From UHGV virus genome UHGV-0063828: a DNA stretch of 37,358 nucleotides. One strand, written 5' to 3'. This document shows, in pieces, positions 2,926 to 19,683 of the stretch. Numbering within the stretch: the stretch's first letter is position 1; each line of letters begins with the position of its first letter. The notes under the pieces are model-generated. The model worked only from the letters and a program-made list of their open reading frames with translations, ran no database searches and was not told where the DNA came from. This DNA comes from a virus. The translations under genes were made by a program, and so were the position numbers.

Positions 2926-3108
2926 TTACCACACCTCTGCGGTAATCTTTACTTTAATGTCATACTTCTTTAAGAGTTTGTGGAAGGTTGATTGATCAAT
3001 ACCTTCACCTTTAAACCATTCACCCATCACTACATCAGGTGTCAGTTCAAAATAACGCTTTGCCATTTCTAAAACGATTTCGCGAGTGAACTTAACAGGT
3101 CGTGCCAT
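2926..3108 (-). CDS. Small HTH-type DNA-binding protein (60 aa), candidate regulator
   Basis: Strong AGGAGGA SD before ATG; borders the large repeat-rich non-coding region and is divergent from the rightward early genes. Confidence 0.5.
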   Translation of the reverse strand: MARPVKFTREIVLEMAKRYFELTPDVVMGEWFKGEGIDQSTFHKLLKKYDIKVKITAEVW

Positions 3109-3626
3109 CTCGAATCCTCCTAAATCTGGATTAATGATTTCTTAAAAAAGAGCGTTAACCGCTCACTATTATTTATATGGGGATTGTATTTTATTTTTCA
3201 ACCCCTCACATTTATCTCTTATATATGTATTTATAACAGAGATATGTTAAAATGTTATTCAGATGTTATCAGGCGTGTTAAATGTGTTAAACCACAGCAC
3301 GAATTGCTAAAGCGAAGAACACGATTTAACCAAATTGATGTTTATTCAATCAATTTAGAAAAAGGCATAGCACTTTTTGCTAAAGCGGTGAGCATTAATT
3401 GAGCTATGAATTGTAAAGATTTGTTACAAGATTTTCTCTCAGATCCAAATCTTCACAGACATATAACAATTTAACACGGTGATAACAATAGGAAGGAAAA
3501 TCGGTAAATTTTCACTTTCAATACAAATATTATACCACATTTTTCTCGAATTGTCAAGTATAGCACCAAACCTACATAGTGTCAAGAAAGGACTTTCAAA
3601 CCTACACTAGCCCTACACTATGAAAA

Positions 3627-3866
3627 TTGCCCCTGAATTTTTGCCCCTGAACCAAAATCCCCCTAGATTCCACATCCCATTTTTGCCCCTGAAACCCACT
3701 ATTTTTGCCCCTGAAATTCTGGGGAACAGTGATTTTGCCCCTCATTTTTGCCCCTGAAATGCCAATAATTGCCCCTGAAAATCTCATTTTTGCCCCTGAA
3801 ATTTGCCCCCGAAAAGGATTGGTGAGAAAAACTCTTTATAAAACATTAACTTAGTGAGGGGCAAAA
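3627..3866 (+). repeat. Iteron-like array: 7 perfect and 2 variant direct copies of TTGCCCCTGAA, plus one inverted copy
   Basis: Perfect copies start at 3627, 3641, 3683, 3705, 3748, 3769, 3790; variants at 3735 and 3803; inverted GAGGGGCAAAA at 3856-3866; same motif forms the hairpin at 6324-6345. Confidence 0.85.
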
Positions 3867-4016
3867 GCGAGGGATCGGGCGTGCATAGATATTATATAAC
3901 ACATTCGCTACGCTCATGTGTAAAACCAAAAACAACAAATAACCAAAAAGATATTAGGAGGGCGTAGCCCGACTGCGCGAAGCGCCAACCAATTACTTCT
4001 AGTAACAACTAATTTA

Positions 4017-4230
4017 AACTAGATGATCTTAGAAGGAATTAACTAGTTTGCTCGCTCGCTTCGCTCACTCTCAAACGTCTGCGACGCCACTGCGTGGCAT
4101 CGAGAATCACTTCTGAAAGGATTTTCTTGAAAGGGATTTTAAACTAGTTACTAACTGATTCTAGAAAGATAGTAATAATCACTTTGAAGATAATAGTAGT
4201 TAACTGGTTACTAGATGATTCTAGATCACT
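4017..4230. repeat. Cluster of ACTAG-centred palindromes and direct repeats
   Basis: AACTAGTT at 4041-4048 and 4142-4149; AACTAGATGATCTTAGAA at 4017-4037 vs TTACTAGATGATTCTAGATC at 4208-4229; TCTAGA sites. Confidence 0.7.
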
Positions 4231-4485
4231 TTAATGATCATGAAAGGTATTGGTTATCCCTTCGGGATTGCAACCTTCGGTTGCTAAATTGCTTCCTGAT
4301 TATAATTTCTCCAAAAGAAAGATTCTTATATTCTAAAGATACTTCTTCGTTTTGATGATGATTTAATCAAAATCTATGAAGGAGGCGAAGCCGACTGAAT
4401 CCAATCACTTCCAAATAGATAAAAAATTCTCGTTATAAATACTAGTGTAATTTGTTTGATTCACTTTCTTTTAGAGGATACCACT

Positions 4486-4938
4486 ATGATCAATACTAAA
4501 ACTCCTTTCATTCTTCTGGGTCTGAACCATGATGATAATCTGGCTATGATGCATGTTTTCGCTAATCGTGGTTATAACATCATTCGTCATTCCGAAGACT
4601 CCAATTTCTCAACTGCTTTCTATGCTCTTAAACGTAATGGTCGCCCTACGGTTATCGTAGACTGCTTTACTGATGAAGGTCGTGAACAATACAACAACAT
4701 TCCGGCAATTATTGTTCGTGATGACCTGCCGTTTGATGTTCGTGAATATGACGTTGATTTAGGCTCTTACTACGGGATCGCGGATCTTGACCAGATTATG
4801 GCTGATTATGGTAAACAACCCGCTCAGGAAGCCCCAGAACACGATGAACAAGACGAAGATGACGACGACTACGCACCAATCGCTTTTTCTTCTCACGGTG
4901 GCTTCTACGGTTACGATGAAGGCTTAGATATGCTGTAA
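4486..4938 (+). CDS. Acidic early protein (150 aa), function unknown
   Basis: AGAGGA SD before ATG at 4486 (track start 4456 is a TTG); first gene after the non-coding region; very acidic C-terminal half (EHDEQDEDDDDY). Confidence 0.5.
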   Translation: MINTKTPFILLGLNHDDNLAMMHVFANRGYNIIRHSEDSNFSTAFYALKRNGRPTVIVDCFTDEGREQYNNIPAIIVRDDLPFDVREYDVDLGSYYGIADLDQIMADYGKQPAQEAPEHDEQDEDDDDYAPIAFSSHGGFYGYDEGLDML

Positions 4939-4973
4939 GTTAGGTCAACCCTTTGGCGTTTTGTCAAGGGGTA

Positions 4974-5003
4974 TTGACAAAATTTTATGACTTTTTTATG
5001 ATT
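4974..5003 (+). promoter_or_regulatory. Sigma70-like promoter TTGACA-N18-TATGAT with adjacent palindrome TTGTCAA-N6-TTGACAA (4961-4980)
   Basis: Hexamers read directly; located upstream of the gene at 5059. Confidence 0.45.
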
Positions 5004-5058
5004 ATCGCACTTGACAACTTTGAACCTATTTGACCTAGATTTGTAAAGAGGGTGTAAC

Positions 5059-6318: not shown

Positions 6319-6325
6319 TAATTTT

Positions 6326-6356
6326 TGCCCCTGAATTTCAGGGGCTTTTTGTTTTC
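6326..6356 (+). terminator. Intrinsic terminator after the Rha-like gene, built from the iteron motif
   Basis: GCCCCTGAA-T-TTCAGGGGC followed by TTTTTGTTTT. Confidence 0.7.
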
Positions 6357-6397: not shown

Positions 6398-6625
6398 TCA
6401 AACTCCGTTGATTGGTACAACCTCTCCACCGTCTACACGTATAAAGAACTCGACATTAAGTTTCTTCATACTTTTATAAAACTGGGCGGTGGAGATGCCC
6501 AGATCGTTTAATACTTTCTCTCTGCTTTCTTTACCTTTGCCAGCTTTGTAAAACTCGTAGCAAATGTATGCCAGTTGTTCACGATTAAAACGGGCAGGGC
6601 GACCGCGAGTAGCTTTAGTAGTCAT
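6398..6625 (-). CDS. Small DNA-binding-like protein (75 aa) sharing a C-terminal motif with the adjacent 200 aa protein
   Basis: Start placed at ATG with GGAGAAA SD (track start is a GTG); RGRP N-terminus; C-terminal KKLNVEFFIRVDGGEVVPI resembles [21 protein letters not shown] of the neighbour. Confidence 0.4.
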   Translation of the reverse strand: MTTKATRGRPARFNREQLAYICYEFYKAGKGKESREKVLNDLGISTAQFYKSMKKLNVEFFIRVDGGEVVPINGV

Positions 6626-6660: not shown

Positions 6661-7263
6661 TTATTTAGAGGACTTAGATTTTATAGGAAAAAGTTCTCCA
6701 TCGTCAATACTCATAAAGAACTCAACCTTAATCCCGTACTTCTTCAACCGTGAATAATATGTACCCCGACTTATATCAACCTTGCGAAGCACTTCAAAGA
6801 AGGATTTAGGATCGTTGTAATAGTGGCTGTACTTCACGTTAGCGAGTTCAACGAATAGTTCCCTTGTATCACCATAGCCTTTCTTGAAAGCGATGTTACG
6901 AGGCATTGTAACAGCCATATTATCCCGTGTCTGTTTCAACACTTCTCGGATCGGCTTCCACTGCAACCGATAGATAGGACCGTCATCAATGCGATAATAA
7001 CGCTTGATATCAAAATCAAACCATTCACGGACTCGCTGAAACTCTGTCTGTGATGTTCGGTGCTTCTTAAAGAAGTTATGGATATCTGTATACCCATGAT
7101 CGCGATACAACTCGATTAAAATTTGCTTCGCTTCTTCGCGACTAAAGCCGGATGTTGTGTAATCAGTCTTCTTGTGATGGTGCTTAACTGGCAAACGATA
7201 TTCATGATCGGTACAAGACAAGGCTAATTCTAATTCATCTCTTTCTTGCTGATTAATTAGCAT
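6661..7263 (-). CDS. Hypothetical protein (200 aa) with repeated HTH-like modules
   Basis: Strong AAGGAGGG SD; internally repeated helix-rich units; divergent from the large terminase gene. Confidence 0.5.
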
Positions 7264-13842: not shown

Positions 13843-14248
13843 TAATATGCCGAGACTGAAAATCAAACGCGCCTTGCAAGATATTATCGAACAAGATTTA
13901 GGTCTGGCTTTAAACGTAGAACAAACTCAGCAAGGCTTTAGTGATGATGTGGTTTGTTGGATCACCGGAATGAATGAGACTTACACTAGGGTCCGTGGTG
14001 GTAATGCAATGCAAGCTGAATGCGTTATCGAAATGCAATTGTATTCTCAGATTCATGAAACCAAAATTCATGAGGGTATTTGCCAGATAATCCAGATTCA
14101 GCCGGATAACCCACGTTTTAAAGATTTGGGCTTCGCTATTTCAGATATCACTCCAGTAGCTTCTAATACCGATTATGACGATGATTCTAGTGATGGGGGT
14201 ATCGTTGGGACACTTAGCCTTAAATTTTCTTATCTAGCGCGTTTTTAA
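13826..14248 (+). CDS. Putative head-tail connector protein (141 aa)
   Basis: Start placed at ATG 13826 with GGGGG SD, overlapping the previous gene end; positional inference only. Confidence 0.4.
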   Translation: MLATVNNMPRLKIKRALQDIIEQDLGLALNVEQTQQGFSDDVVCWITGMNETYTRVRGGNAMQAECVIEMQLYSQIHETKIHEGICQIIQIQPDNPRFKDLGFAISDITPVASNTDYDDDSSDGGIVGTLSLKFSYLARF

Positions 14249-15164: not shown

Positions 15165-18100
15165 ATGCAGTCGATCCAATTTAAACGAACAAATGTTTCT
15201 GGCAAAAAACCAACGCCGGAACAATTACAGGTCGGTGAGGTAGCAATCAACCTTAAAGACCATGTTATTTTTACCAAAGACCGAGATCATGAAGTAGTTC
15301 AAATCTCTGTTTCTCCTGAAACTCACGCGGCACTAGAATCTAAAGTTGATGCTAACAAACAAGAACTGGATAGCACAATTGCAGTAAATGACCGCAATAT
15401 TCACGCTAAAGTAGATGAAATTAAACAAACTACTGATGCAACCATCGCAGCAAATCACGCAGAAATTAACAATAAAGTTGATGTAATTAAACGCGAAACC
15501 GACGCGACAATCGAGGCCAATAAAAATAAAGCTGCTTCCGATCTTGCTGGTGTTAAAGCTGAATTGTCGGATACCATCAACGCTAATAAAAATGCGGCTG
15601 CTGTAGCAACTCAGGAACTGGACACCCGCATCAATAAAAAAGTTGATGATATTAAATCCCGTACCGATGCAACCATCGCAAGCAATGACAAAGCAATCAA
15701 TGACAAAGTTGATTTGATTAAGGCAGAAACTGACCGCACTATCGCAGCAAATAAAGTCTATGCGGAAAATCAGTTAACTGACACCTACAATAACCTTACT
15801 GGTGTGATTGCAGCCAATAAGCAAGAGGCAGCGGATAACGTCGCGGCATTAACCCGTGATGTTGAAGCCAAAAATACCGCAATTCATAGCAAAGTTGACA
15901 ATAACAAGTCTTACACTGATTCTGAATTGGCACGTTTAGAAAGCCGTATTGATGCAGCCGATGGATCGAGTGATGGCAAGTACATCAAAAAGCACGTAAA
16001 CACTTACACTGATGGCTATTTGCTATCTAAGACCGCAAACTATTTTGATGATCCGGGTGCGCGTAATCTTGATTATTTTGGTGCATTCCGCATGAATGAC
16101 CTGGCGGGTCATATTGCAATGATCTTGCATGTTCCGCATCCATCTGGTGTTAATCATGCTCGTGGCTTTGAGTTCACTTATGGGTCCAATCCACATGCTA
16201 CTGTAAGAACATACGGCTATGATGAATTGGGTCATTTGGCATATTCTCACCGCATGTATCATGAAGGCGATAAACCAACTCCGGCTGAAATTGGCGCATA
16301 TTCGAAAGCAGAAATTGACCGGATGTTCCAGAAGACCATCAACTTTGGTGTAGAAACTGGATGGTTTAAAATTGCTACCGCCTTTATTCCGCAAAATGAT
16401 GGACGTAGCTTGAAAATTAGATTGATTGGTGGAAATGGGTGGAACGTAGGCCAAACTGGACAATGTAATATTATTGAACTTGTTATAAGGACTAGCAACG
16501 GTTCGCCTAAAGGAATTAACTTTGTTGCGTATCATCATGTTTCTGGTTACGAGAATCAATTTTGTGCCATTAATACAAGTGATGACACTTATGATATCTA
16601 TGCATATTACTTCGAATTTACTAATATGGTAATGGCTGAATATCAAGCGTCTACCGGTGTTAATTTAACTGTACTTGATCGACCTGAATATGTAGGCGAA
16701 AAACCTGTAGCTGATCATATCTATGATGCATATACAATACACTCCTTTAACAGTTTCAGTAACCGTGGAACGTTAAATTTTGCTGGAAACCATCAAGGTC
16801 AATATGATATTGAGCATTTGAACGAACAACCGACAAATGCTAAGAAAATGCTGCGTCGCTTCCGTAGTTCTGCTCCTGCCACTATCTGGCACGAAAGTGT
16901 TGATGACCAAAATTATCGTCTTGCTACTGGATATAGCGATGTAAACCCACAATTATTGCTTTCTGCTGTAACCGGGTTACATGTCAAGAGATTAACGTTG
17001 GATGGTGGTGTCACTGGAAATTCTGGTATTGATATTCGTCGAGGACCAAACGAATCAAGCCATTTTAATTTTATGGATTATCGCACTGGTCAAGATGTTC
17101 GTAATGGCTGGTTTGGCTTCGGTGATGGTCAGACCAAAGATTTTATTTGGTGGAACGATAACGGTCAAAACTCGATAAACTTGATTGAAAACGGTGAATT
17201 GCATATTACTGGCGGTAAAGGCCAGAAAATTGTAATGAATAGCGAAGTTGCATTATCTGAAAATGCTCGTTTGGCTGTCAAAGGCGGTAACTATGGCTTA
17301 ATTTTTAGAAATGATGGATCTGACTTCCATATTCTCACCACAGGTCTCGGTGATTCCTTTGGACCGTGGAATACTCGTAGACCATTCAGCTATAATTTTG
17401 CGGATGGTGGATTGGATCTAGGTGGTACTGAAACCGCTCGTTGTTTGCACCTGGGAATTGATGGTAGCACTCGTCTCGAAGACAACCTTTTATTTAAATC
17501 TGGTTCTCGTCAATCTATGGACTATATGGAACTCGTCCATTGGGGTAACAGTAATACAGGACGCAACAACGTTTTGAGTATGCGGGATTCCAAAGGATTT
17601 TTAGCCGAATTTGAACGCACCGGAAACAATAGCATTAAAACTAGATTCTTTGGTGAAACCTTCACTGACGGTACATTATACCTAAATCAGATGAATAATA
17701 GCTCTGAACGATTCTCTATCAACAATTGGGGAAATTCAGAAGTTGGACGCGCGGCAGTAATGGAAATCGGTGATTCCAAAGGTTATCACTTCTATACGGA
17801 ACGTAGAACAGATAACAGTTTGGCGTTTGATGTTGCTGGCGCTTTTACTGTGCATGGACCTAACGGAATAACCATCAAAAACTCAGCGGGTGCACGCCAT
17901 ATCTGGTTTAGAGATGATAGCGATGCAGAAAAGGCTGTTATCTGGGCTACAGATGATGGTCTTTTACATATTCGCAATAACTACGGTGGACATTTTAGTC
18001 ATCACTTCCAGGGTGCAATGATTAAAGTGGGAGAGCGTGTTCCTTATGCCGCAGATCAAGGACTTATCCGTGGTGAGGTTTCTGGTGGTGCATATGTTGC

Positions 18101-18683
18101 ATGGAGAGACCGACCTGCTGGTTTGTTGGTTGACTGTCAACAAAGCGTTGATAGTGCTCATGCTATTTGGAAAGCGGTTGATTGGGGGCGTAACTACATC
18201 GCTGCTATGGACGTTCATTGTCCCGGTGATAGTAATAATACTGCGGCAGCGGTTCTTCATGTTCAGGGTGCTGATTATCAATTCCATGCAAGTGGAGAAT
18301 TTCATGCCACTGGTAACGGAAACTTTAACGATGTTTATATTCGTTCCGATCGTCGTCTGAAAATTAATGTTGAAGACTACGAAGAAAATGCGGTAGATAA
18401 GGTAAATAAACTCAAAGTTAAAACCTACGATAAAGTTAAATCACTTTCTGATCGCGAAGTCATCGCACATGAGATTGGTATTATCGCACAGGATTTACAA
18501 GAGGTATTACCGGAAGCTGTTAAAACCGCAAAAATTGGTGGTCTTGATAACCCAGAAGAAATTTTAACAATTTCAAACTCCGCAGTGAACGCGCTTTTAA
18601 TTAAAGCGGTCCAAGAAATGAGCGAAGAAAATAAACTTCTTCGTGAACGTCTTGCTGCTATTGAGGCTAAATTATTTGGTTAA
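15165..18683 (+). CDS. Side tail fibre with C-terminal intramolecular chaperone (peptidase S74-like) domain
   Basis: N-terminal periodic KVDxIKxxTDATIAxN repeats (4 copies); last ~112 aa SDRRLKINVEDYEENAVDK...LAAIEAKL resembles the self-cleaving chaperone of T5 L-shaped fibre and endosialidases. Confidence 0.85.
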   Translation: MQSIQFKRTNVSGKKPTPEQLQVGEVAINLKDHVIFTKDRDHEVVQISVSPETHAALESKVDANKQELDSTIAVNDRNIHAKVDEIKQTTDATIAANHAEINNKVDVIKRETDATIEANKNKAASDLAGVKAELSDTINANKNAAAVATQELDTRINKKVDDIKSRTDATIASNDKAINDKVDLIKAETDRTIAANKVYAENQLTDTYNNLTGVIAANKQEAADNVAALTRDVEAKNTAIHSKVDNNKSYTDSELARLESRIDAADGSSDGKYIKKHVNTYTDGYLLSKTANYFDDPGARNLDYFGAFRMNDLAGHIAMILHVPHPSGVNHARGFEFTYGSNPHATVRTYGYDELGHLAYSHRMYHEGDKPTPAEIGAYSKAEIDRMFQKTINFGVETGWFKIATAFIPQNDGRSLKIRLIGGNGWNVGQTGQCNIIELVIRTSNGSPKGINFVAYHHVSGYENQFCAINTSDDTYDIYAYYFEFTNMVMAEYQASTGVNLTVLDRPEYVGEKPVADHIYDAYTIHSFNSFSNRGTLNFAGNHQGQYDIEHLNEQPTNAKKMLRRFRSSAPATIWHESVDDQNYRLATGYSDVNPQLLLSAVTGLHVKRLTLDGGVTGNSGIDIRRGPNESSHFNFMDYRTGQDVRNGWFGFGDGQTKDFIWWNDNGQNSINLIENGELHITGGKGQKIVMNSEVALSENARLAVKGGNYGLIFRNDGSDFHILTTGLGDSFGPWNTRRPFSYNFADGGLDLGGTETARCLHLGIDGSTRLEDNLLFKSGSRQSMDYMELVHWGNSNTGRNNVLSMRDSKGFLAEFERTGNNSIKTRFFGETFTDGTLYLNQMNNSSERFSINNWGNSEVGRAAVMEIGDSKGYHFYTERRTDNSLAFDVAGAFTVHGPNGITIKNSAGARHIWFRDDSDAEKAVIWATDDGLLHIRNNYGGHFSHHFQGAMIKVGERVPYAADQGLIRGEVSGGAYVAWRDRPAGLLVDCQQSVDSAHAIWKAVDWGRNYIAAMDVHCPGDSNNTAAAVLHVQGADYQFHASGEFHATGNGNFNDVYIRSDRRLKINVEDYEENAVDKVNKLKVKTYDKVKSLSDREVIAHEIGIIAQDLQEVLPEAVKTAKIGGLDNPEEILTISNSAVNALLIKAVQEMSEENKLLRERLAAIEAKLFG

Positions 18684-18722
18684 TTAAAATAGCGGGGAGA
18701 AATCCCCGCTAAGGATTCTTAT

Positions 18723-19019
18723 ATGGGATATTGGGTAAGTAGTGAAATTAATACTAAAATCGATGCTTTAAAATGGCATGTATTTGATATTCCTAACGGC
18801 TATGGTACTGCTCGTGCTGGTGTCGCTGTAATGCGTCATAATGCTGGTGGTGGGTGGTCTGATGCACATATTAACGTAGATGGTTTGACCGTTGCTCGTC
18901 GTCGTGGTGGGACCAATTGGGGATCTACTATAAATTCGTTTGTTCCTGCTGGCTGCACCGTCTCCTTTGGTTTAGGGGGTGAAGGTGGTGTTGAATATTT
19001 TAAATTCATGGAGTTTTAA
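18723..19019 (+). CDS. Small Gly/Trp-rich protein, paralog 1 of 3 (FDIPNG family)
   Basis: AAGGA SD; shares W..FDIPNGW and C-terminal T-V-S-F..G...YFKF pattern with the next two ORFs. Confidence 0.6.
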   Translation: MGYWVSSEINTKIDALKWHVFDIPNGYGTARAGVAVMRHNAGGGWSDAHINVDGLTVARRRGGTNWGSTINSFVPAGCTVSFGLGGEGGVEYFKFMEF

Positions 19020-19021
19020 TT

Positions 19022-19327
19022 ATGGCTGGATGGATAAATCAAAGAATGTCAAACGCTATTAGTATTTGGGCTAATGGTGGATATTTTGATATCCCCAACG
19101 GCTGGGTTACTGATTCATGCGGAATTGTTTTTGCTCATATGGAAGCCATTAACGGTGCTGGTGATCTTGATTCTGAATTGGCTGTAAATGGATTGATTGA
19201 ATCAGGTCATCATGCTGGTGATGCTGGGAGTTGGGGCGCTAGTTCTTTAGTTGGCGCTGGTGCTACCGTTAGCTTTACATTGGGTAAAGGTAGTTTGCAT
19301 TATTTCAAATTCAGGAGAATGCACTAA
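19022..19327 (+). CDS. Small Gly/Trp-rich protein, paralog 2 of 3
   Basis: Starts 3 nt after paralog 1 stop; conserved FDIPNGW core. Confidence 0.6.
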   Translation: MAGWINQRMSNAISIWANGGYFDIPNGWVTDSCGIVFAHMEAINGAGDLDSELAVNGLIESGHHAGDAGSWGASSLVGAGATVSFTLGKGSLHYFKFRRMH

Positions 19328-19629
19328 TGGCATTTTGGGTAGATGGCGCTTTGGGGACTAGGGCGGGTAAAGCAAATCAAGGATGGTTTGATATTCCTAA
19401 CGGTTGGACAGCCGACGCTTTCGGGACTATTTCATTCTGTGTTCATTCTTCCGGTGGTGGCGGCGGTGACTCTGAATTGTTTATTCATGGTTTTTGTGTT
19501 TCTGGAAGCCATAAGGGTCATGATTGGGGACAGATCCATTCTTGTATTGCACCGCAAGGAGCAGTAATTACAGTTAGCACAAATAGGGGGATCGCTCATC
19601 TTCGTTATAGACGTTTGAGCAATCGCTAA
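19327..19629 (+). CDS. Small Gly/Trp-rich protein, paralog 3 of 3
   Basis: TAATG stop/start overlap with paralog 2; AGGAGA SD; conserved FDIPNGW core. Confidence 0.6.
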   Translation: MAFWVDGALGTRAGKANQGWFDIPNGWTADAFGTISFCVHSSGGGGGDSELFIHGFCVSGSHKGHDWGQIHSCIAPQGAVITVSTNRGIAHLRYRRLSNR

Positions 19630-19683
19630 ATAAATAGAATTACGGGTATGTACCCTATTGTTTAAAATAGAAGGAAAAGAATA

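Follow-up and report, generated by a model that had tools for sequence, protein, structure and literature searches.

An iteron array that co-varies with an orphan protein in a candidate control and origin region of an Escherichia coli prophage family

What does a temperate phage keep in more than a kilobase of gene-free DNA between two divergent operons? We addressed this question for UHGV virus genome UHGV-0063828, a stretch of 37,358 nucleotides (the whole of which is called the window here) that corresponds approximately to a single prophage of ~36 kb. The stretch of interest, referred to as the gap, lies at positions 3109–4485 and is a 1.35 kb gene-free interval. To its left, a minus-strand operon begins with the gene of a 60-amino-acid (aa) protein (p60; 2926–3108) and continues with that of a 313-aa protein (1871–2812); to its right, from the first start codon at 4486, follow the genes for p150, p110 and a Rha/antirepressor-like protein—a divergent arrangement that an earlier note, made from the sequence alone, had described correctly. 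Our tentative reading is that the gap serves a temperate phage as its central non-coding control region, in which an iteron origin of replication is served by a new initiator-like protein.

An iteron array that changes type together with one protein

Within the gap, a plus-strand array of nine direct iterons with the core TTGCCCCTGAA runs from 3627 to 3813 (starts at 3627, 3641, 3683, 3705, 3735, 3748, 3769, 3790 and 3803; start-to-start spacing of 14, 42, 22, 30, 13, 21, 21 and 13). Eight copies match the core with at most one mismatch, and the copy at 3735 is a TTGCCCCTCA variant; window-wide, nine matches compare with 0.6 expected, and none of 100 shuffles reached that number. Three CCTACA(C/T) repeats that resemble the type C iteron described below border the array on its left edge (3567–3620, plus strand). 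On the right, a moderately AT-rich spacer leads to an inverted iteron, TGAGGGGCAAAA (3855–3866)—the two together occupying 3814–3866—and the same layout recurs in the relative at locus L033. The further repeat families listed in the earlier note were all in place and are non-random as well.

A set of 41 related loci was drawn from IMG/VR, from E. coli genomes and from a single publicly available read assembly, and their arrays represent six iteron types: A (TTGCCCCTGAA, the type of the window), A' (TTTGCCCCTC, seven copies plus one inverted), B (TCCCCAAGATTCCA, five copies), C (ACCTACACT, 7–9 copies), D (TCCCCG, about 16 copies) and E (RGCATYYGAA, about 13 copies). Copy number in the relatives varies from 5 to 14, with the 14 copies of L035 (E. 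coli UTME-9, 794–1085) arising through a 107-bp internal duplication. At all 41 loci, the iteron type matches the type of the N-terminal domain of the protein encoded in the slot of the 313-aa gene (A at 19 loci, C at 17, D at two, and B, A' and E at one each). This match is not a matter of simple linkage, because the left module of the gap and the 60-aa gene, both of which sit between the 313-aa gene and the array, reassort: both left-module types are found with A and with C iterons, and both variants of the 60-aa protein occur within A and within C. Among ten neighbouring proteins, only the 313-aa protein tracks the type, its identity being 95% or higher throughout the A loci and no more than 21% at the remaining loci; none of terS, p94, p60, p150, p110, Rha, p86 and p200 does so. 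The earlier note had put forward the 60-aa and Rha-like proteins as potential binders of the repeats. Both, however, reassort independently of iteron type, and the partner singled out by the comparison is the 313-aa protein. The variants of the 60-aa gene are likewise independent of the left module.

The locus L179 offers a natural hybrid, in which an A-type N-terminal domain is joined to a B-type C-terminal domain; the locus carries A iterons, and specificity therefore follows the N-terminal domain. Moreover, a relative with 47% identity in this domain carries a slightly diverged iteron. Taken at the level of sequence, these comparisons suggest that the N-terminal ~170 residues of the protein read the iterons.

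The putative iteron binder of the window (type A) comprises an N-terminal beta-rich domain, a coiled coil and an acidic C-terminus. Searches of Pfam, PHROGs, NCBIfam and PDB sequences returned no match, tblastn against phage and plasmid collections likewise found none, structure and fold comparisons gave nothing informative, and just 12 clusters were retrieved among 1.84 billion representative proteins. Outside the coiled coil, no similarity could be detected between types A, B and C. Two alanines close the proteins of types B, C, D and A' (RKAA, AYAA, DFAA and RRAA; loci L006, L007, L026, L033, L179 and L180), and these ends presumably resemble ClpX-type C-terminal degradation tags; one type C variant has an expanded AYAYAYAYAYAA tail, and the type A protein of the window ends in SYCQ.

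One further exact copy of the type A iteron (6325–6335) forms the left arm of the palindrome TTTTGCCCCTGAA-TT-TCAGGGGCTTTTT at 6322–6346, which is the terminator after the Rha gene. This copy was considered as a further binding site and rejected, because the terminator palindrome of which it makes up one half occurs in phages of all iteron types and shows no co-variation.

Replication origin or operator array

If the array belongs to an origin, the iterons would be the binding sites for the N-terminal domain of the 313-aa protein, encoded 0.8 kb leftward, and the origin of replication would be composed of the array, of the moderately AT-rich spacer plus the inverted iteron, and of the GC palindromes on the right. 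The 313-aa protein would act as a lambda-O-like initiator: iteron recognition would fall to its variable N-terminal domain, and oligomerisation and the recruitment of host or phage factors to the coiled coil and C-terminal domain. Two tandem consensus sigma-70 promoters on the minus strand, P1 (TTGACA-17-TATACT, 3585–3557, 11/12 consensus positions) and P2 (TTGACA-17-TGgTATAAT, 3557–3529, 12/12), would produce a structured RNA of ~380–410 nt ending before the 60-aa/313-aa operon, which could be a regulator itself or a gate on initiator expression. The right module, in turn, would provide a hairpin-rich untranslated or regulatory stretch ahead of the rightward early genes. In favour of an origin, the repeats share one orientation, keep largely to a 21–22 bp register and vary in copy number, and no other initiator candidate is recognisable in the prophage.

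The arrangement is comparable to that of lambdoid origins (lambda, phi80, P22). The lambda origin is laid out as iterons, an AT-rich stretch and a palindrome; here, type-specific iterons, an AT-richer stretch and a palindrome follow one another in the same order. As with lambda O, the specificity of the array changes with the N-terminal domain, and the C-terminal domain is exchanged separately. Unlike in lambda, the gene and the array are separate, with 0.8 kb and another module between them, and the array consists of 9–14 short (11–14 nt) direct repeats in place of four 19-bp sites. A further difference is that the 313-aa protein resembles neither O nor any Rep family, and no P-, DnaB- or DnaC-like replication partner is recognisable in the prophage, nor is any replication initiator, polymerase or primase among its proteins.

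Several observations speak against this reading. The co-variation amounts to a functional link rather than to binding, an origin and an operator array could both account for it, and the protein could itself be a repressor, because no classical repressor was found. No similarity to the Rep, O or RepA families and no known DNA-binding fold could be detected in it, and its structure model is moderately confident only (pLDDT, the predicted local distance difference test, of 62). The AT-rich segment is modest at 68–75% (68% at 3821–3860 and 75% at 3921–3960, against ~64% for the region); only two DnaA-like 9-mers with one mismatch occur, away from the array, and no consensus site for integration host factor (IHF) was found at the region—although host-factor sites of these kinds are not universal in iteron origins. 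A perfect-consensus promoter beside an initiator operon would be odd for a stable prophage unless it is silenced. Finally, covariation in the proposed leftward RNA is weak: an alignment of 14 sequences of the type 2 left module shows one compensatory pair among 76 predicted, with 16 pair types kept and 10 broken.

The main rival to an iteron origin is an immunity region, which we regard as possible and less probable than the origin. The 313-aa protein would then be the prophage repressor, the iterons its operator array between the divergent operons, and the six protein/iteron pairs so many heteroimmune types. Family and profile searches across the prophage proteins revealed no CI-like or other recognisable repressor, the 60-aa/313-aa operon diverges from the rightward p150, p110 and Rha/antirepressor-like genes, and the 313-aa gene lies downstream of very strong promoters, as would be expected of a gene expressed in the lysogen; besides, a protein and its sites that switch type together are typical of immunity regions. 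The protein also resembles the Mu c repressor in its layout, with a putative DNA-binding domain at the N-terminus, a coiled coil that would oligomerise and a C-terminus that would regulate; Mu c, likewise of medium size, has its O1–O3 operator repeats between divergent operons and is paired with them in an immunity-type-specific manner. However, no similarity in sequence or fold connects the two proteins, and the 313-aa protein is dissimilar to the other repressor families too (CI/XRE helix-turn-helix proteins and P1 C1). The repeats here have a single orientation and do not overlie recognisable promoters: the array begins 42 bp upstream of the P1 -35 element, without overlap, no rightward sigma-70 promoter of at least 9/12 occurs from the array to the first gene, and the sole plus-strand candidate (9/12) is found at 3551–3580, to the left of the array. 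In addition, an array of 9–14 repeats that all point the same way in helical register would be more usual in an origin than in an operator region. A double-lysogen immunity test was discarded: the two genomes examined among those with matches in two places each held a single self-matching array, one of them with an internal duplication.

A gene-free gap made of exchangeable modules

The surroundings of the putative origin bear out the non-coding character that the earlier note had assigned to the gap. Its largest open reading frames (ORFs) encode 45–72 aa, with no Shine-Dalgarno sequence seen before their starts, and these short frames are not conserved among relatives. In 56 of the 58 E. coli genomes, the matching stretch is left without any annotation by the NCBI annotation pipeline (PGAP), and single-base indels in hairpin loops change the reading frame from one relative to another; a 20-codon ATG-initiated ORF at 4376–4438 was rejected on account of such frame shifts. 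Wherever the gap could be read or measured in full, the relatives keep 1.2–1.5 kb of gene-free DNA at this site, even with replaced sequence. The exception is the more distant relative L174 (IMG/VR 2823530352), whose gap is split by two extra minus-strand genes. These genes lie between the left module and the sixth iteron type, at ~500–1450 of that gap, and one of them belongs to the domain family of the 60- and 86-aa proteins.

BLAST coverage makes the modules visible, as some genomes match only 3633–4447 and others only ~4107–4444. By this comparison, the gap consists of at least three independently exchangeable modules, and its architecture as a whole is conserved in the prophage family—an aspect that goes beyond the earlier note. 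Searches with the gap DNA in phage and plasmid collections (megablast and blastn) gave a single match, an 85-nt element of Krischvirus. Rfam returned no match at the gathering threshold for the whole window, and the best sub-threshold matches under a permissive threshold (22–26 bits, to unrelated families) look like chance.

The gap is framed by a 14-nt motif, TATAAATA[AC]TAGTG, which is inverted at its two ends (3164–3177 and 4434–4447); in each case, the first gene of one of the divergent operons begins 45–60 nt downstream. The left copy, TATAAATAATAGTG (3164–3177, minus strand), stands ~60 nt upstream of the 60-aa start and is kept as TATAAATACAAGTG in left-module type 2; it is a candidate promoter or operator of the leftward operon. 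Its inverted partner, TATAAATACTAGTG (4434–4447, plus strand), lies ~45 nt upstream of the first rightward gene and is conserved in all iteron types. The first part of the motif, TATAAATA, equals the T4 late-promoter consensus, of which the window has seven copies (386, 1216, 2813, 3170, 3228, 4434 and 36385) against 2.8 expected. Six of them fall before 4.5 kb, two being part of the inverted 14-nt motif, and the structural genes have none. The sequence could serve as an ordinary -10-like element, or it may connect the prophage to T4-type transcription.

The left module and its candidate RNA

The left module (3143–3585, minus strand) extends from P1 and P2 to an intrinsic terminator, GAGCG-GTTAA-CGCTC followed by a T run (3144–3164, minus strand), located directly upstream of the ribosome-binding site of the 60-aa gene. 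Promoter and terminator calls are consensus pattern matches only. A transcript of ~380 nt from P2, or ~408 nt from P1, is thus predicted as a candidate non-coding RNA or leader (3143–3550, minus strand). The same promoter-leader-terminator layout is shared by three largely unrelated versions of the module: type 2 has a leftward promoter TTGACA-17-TATACT (11/12), the third type (L033) has TTGACA-17-TATAAT as read by eye, and hairpins of different sequence occupy the terminator position in the other types. The predicted transcripts fold better than shuffled sequences, with z-scores of -5.3 for the window and -4.0 for type 2, and in the type 2 alignment paired columns vary in 18% of cases against 29% for unpaired ones. 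None of the neighbouring proteins changes in step with the left module, which would be compatible with a self-contained RNA cassette. A scan of RNA-duplex energies for targets of the putative RNA yielded nothing above background. P1 and P2 may make an RNA separate from the messenger of the leftward operon: the TATAAATA motif lies just upstream of the terminator, so that a transcript begun there would start inside the hairpin and escape termination.

The module also contains five RTGTTAW repeats within 47 nt (3244–3290, plus strand), compared with a window average of ~1 per kb, and an inverted copy at 3471–3477 inside a ~22-nt inverted repeat. Together, 3244–3290 and 3461–3488 form an imperfect long inverted repeat, in which the TGTTA/TAACA pairing would span ~180 nt of RNA. 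Since the changes in this pairing are uncompensated in the relative L004, protein sites are as likely an interpretation as RNA pairing, and the TGTTA/TAACA repeats may be protein binding sites.

The right module and its hairpins

The right module (3947–4455, plus strand) carries seven small GC hairpins in AT-rich DNA, interspersed with CTAG-rich sequence and RATCACTTY repeats: H1 (3960–3970), H2 (3975–3985), H3 (4082–4102), H4 (4256–4268), H5 (4270–4284), H6 (4350–4372) and H7 (4384–4392). H4 (ATCCC-TTC-GGGAT) and H5 (GCAACC-TTC-GGTTGC) stand in tandem, and a GGAGG-hairpin-GACTG repeat is present at 3955–3974 and again at 4380–4397. Seven copies of CTAG fall within 3999–4224, out of 63 in the whole 37 kb, where the tetranucleotide is under-represented (63 against 90.6 expected); likewise, four of the seven RATCACTTY copies of the window are located at 4105–4411.

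Across iteron types, the hairpin stems persist as their sequences change, either through compensatory substitutions or through replacement of whole hairpins. The H1 stem reads GGGC/GCCC in A, CGGC/GCCG in C and GGCC/GGCC in A'. That of H3 reads GCCAC/GTGGC in A and GTCCC/GGGAC in A'; in its place, C has ACGCC/GGCGT and B has CCGCGC/GCGCGG. Other hairpins take the place of the tandem UUCG-type pair H4/H5 in B, D and A', and the H7 loop is variable (GAA, TTT, TTTA, TAT or GATA). The comparison of relatives by covariance that the earlier note had suggested thus lends support to the short hairpins of the right module, and gives weak evidence for the left one. The fold z-score of about -3 is equal on both strands, and the strand clues conflict, with a C-A mismatch of H3 on the plus strand and a G-U pair on the same strand in a common H6 variant. 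The hairpins may accordingly act as RNA or as single-stranded DNA, and on either strand.

These features bear on an RNA-centred form of control, which we consider unlikely, in which a leftward immunity-type RNA of ~400 nt (akin to P4 CI or P1 C4) and a long structured rightward leader would govern the prophage and the repeats would mainly be RNA elements. The conserved order of promoter, leader and terminator in three unrelated left modules, the strong folding z-scores and the right-module hairpins kept by compensation or replacement, with UUCG-type loops on the plus strand, are all consistent with it; the failure of any neighbouring protein to co-vary with the left module would be expected if specificity resided in the RNA. 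The left module indeed resembles P4 CI and P1/P7 C4 RNAs in its strong constitutive promoter, structured leader and terminator before the genes, here as pattern matches. In contrast to those RNAs, it has no Rfam match at either threshold (C4 included), and its covariation is limited to the single compensatory pair of type 2. The uncompensated changes of L004 and the conflicting strand signals of H3 and H6 count against this form of control too, and the iterons are better explained through their co-variation with a protein, as in the origin reading. The earlier proposal that the gap might hold an origin, operator arrays or non-coding RNAs is partly supported, through an array tied to a protein and a promoter-to-terminator unit with the looks of a non-coding RNA gene.

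The only part of the gap with a match in the phage and plasmid collections is the 85-nt element at 4297–4380 (plus strand), which is ~80% identical to an intergenic element found in one to three copies per genome between late genes of Krischvirus (RB49-like) phages. One stem change in this element, from TTGAT/ATCAA to TTGGT/ACCAA, is compensatory. More generally, the AT-rich DNA with small GC hairpins, UUCG-type loops and TATAAATA motifs is like the intercistronic signals of T4-type phages and the PeSL elements of Krischvirus, in a genome that, unlike those of T4-like phages, is a temperate prophage. By definition (PMC2839356), a PeSL cassette carries a consensus sigma-70 promoter and a stem-loop with G/C tracts, and its 3' end provides a Shine-Dalgarno sequence and a start codon. 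The shared 85-nt element differs in all three respects, and we rejected its assignment to this class: no promoter occurs in 4297–4380, the only stem is the AT-rich TTTTGAT/ATCAAAA, and the next start codon is ~100 nt away.

Genomic context of the prophage family

The prophage is inserted at E. coli ycdX, and its gap sequence was matched in 58 of 5426 complete E. coli genomes (~1%), with all 61 matches being chromosomal. The family is uncharacterised, the best large-terminase match in the phage collection having 43% identity; a scan of species-representative genomes with the large terminase found no relatives, and the 16-mer matches obtained in such genomes, in unrelated taxa, were dismissed as chance. 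In gene order, the small terminase gene (terS, 639–1208) is followed by the gene of a 94-aa membrane protein (p94), the leftward operon, the gap and the rightward genes. After Rha come two leftward genes, p86 (86 aa, 6398–6625) and p200 (200 aa, 6661–7263), then the genes for large terminase, portal, capsid, tail and lysis and, at the end, those for a UvsW-like helicase, two nuclease-like proteins and a large serine recombinase.

The region is flanked by the genes of the small and the large terminase, and several metagenomic contigs terminate within the gap, as might be expected of a packaging site (cos or pac) for the small terminase; alternatively, the gap could be the centromere of a plasmid-like state. 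We hold both to be very improbable. Between iteron types A and C, the small terminase keeps 83–93% identity, without any co-variation, and the contigs end at differing positions, so that their ends look like assembly breaks. As for partition, no ParA or ParM gene was found in the prophage, and every E. coli match is chromosomal, as stated above.

Several further features of the prophage deserve mention. The 60-aa and 86-aa proteins and two repeats in the 200-aa protein have in common a ~60-aa domain, RPxxFxRE ... GIS..TFYK.LKKY.IKV, present in four copies in the prophage and without a family match; this domain is probably DNA-binding, which makes its copies candidate binders of the other repeat families. 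The p110 promoter (TTGACA-17-TATGAT, within 4950–5040) lies inside the palindrome TTTTGTCAA-GGGGTA-TTGACAAAA and is followed by more TTGAC repeats, and TGTCAAG is seen again at the leftward promoters; the palindrome and this heptamer may represent a shared operator. Between the 313-aa and 60-aa genes, a strong hairpin with a T run on the plus strand (2854–2883) forms a terminator for rightward, antisense transcription within the leftward operon. In several relatives, the intergenic DNA after Rha contains arrays of small hairpins with AT-rich loops (L001, 12200–12340; L006, 6340–6620; L011, 6640–6800), a second hairpin-rich non-coding region of the prophage family. The tail-fibre genes (16028–19645 in the window) have 84–92% DNA identity to the long-tail-fibre genes of Krischvirus and other T4-like phages, which points to a recent tail-fibre exchange between temperate prophage and virulent T4-like phages. 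A 91-nt tRNA-Gln called by ARAGORN (14013–14103, minus strand) is probably a false positive, located as it is inside a plus-strand structural ORF.

Implications for the prophage family

A more far-reaching combination can be envisaged, although its parts are quite unlikely to hold jointly: a prophage with no protein repressor of a known kind, controlled by exchangeable leftward RNA cassettes of ~400 nt that perfect promoters would drive; an origin served by an initiator of unknown class, whose DNA-reading domain would have been replaced together with the iterons at least four to six times; and T4-type signals—TATAAATA ahead of both divergent operons, UUCG hairpins and the Krischvirus element—that would let the prophage respond to infection by T4-like phages, its partners in the tail-fibre exchange. 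The region itself is not categorically new. It is a phage control or origin region that comes with a testable pairing of an orphan protein and its sites, and with a candidate unannotated RNA.

No early protein of this prophage family has a known function, and the six natural protein/iteron pairs offer a point of entry, in which N-terminal domains of ~170 residues are predicted to bind repeats of 11–14 nt. The left unit, for its part, may encode an abundant prophage RNA that has escaped genome annotation altogether. If the proposed pairing is true, the 313-aa protein and its counterparts would represent a new family of DNA-binding domains, and with it a new kind of phage initiator or of repressor.

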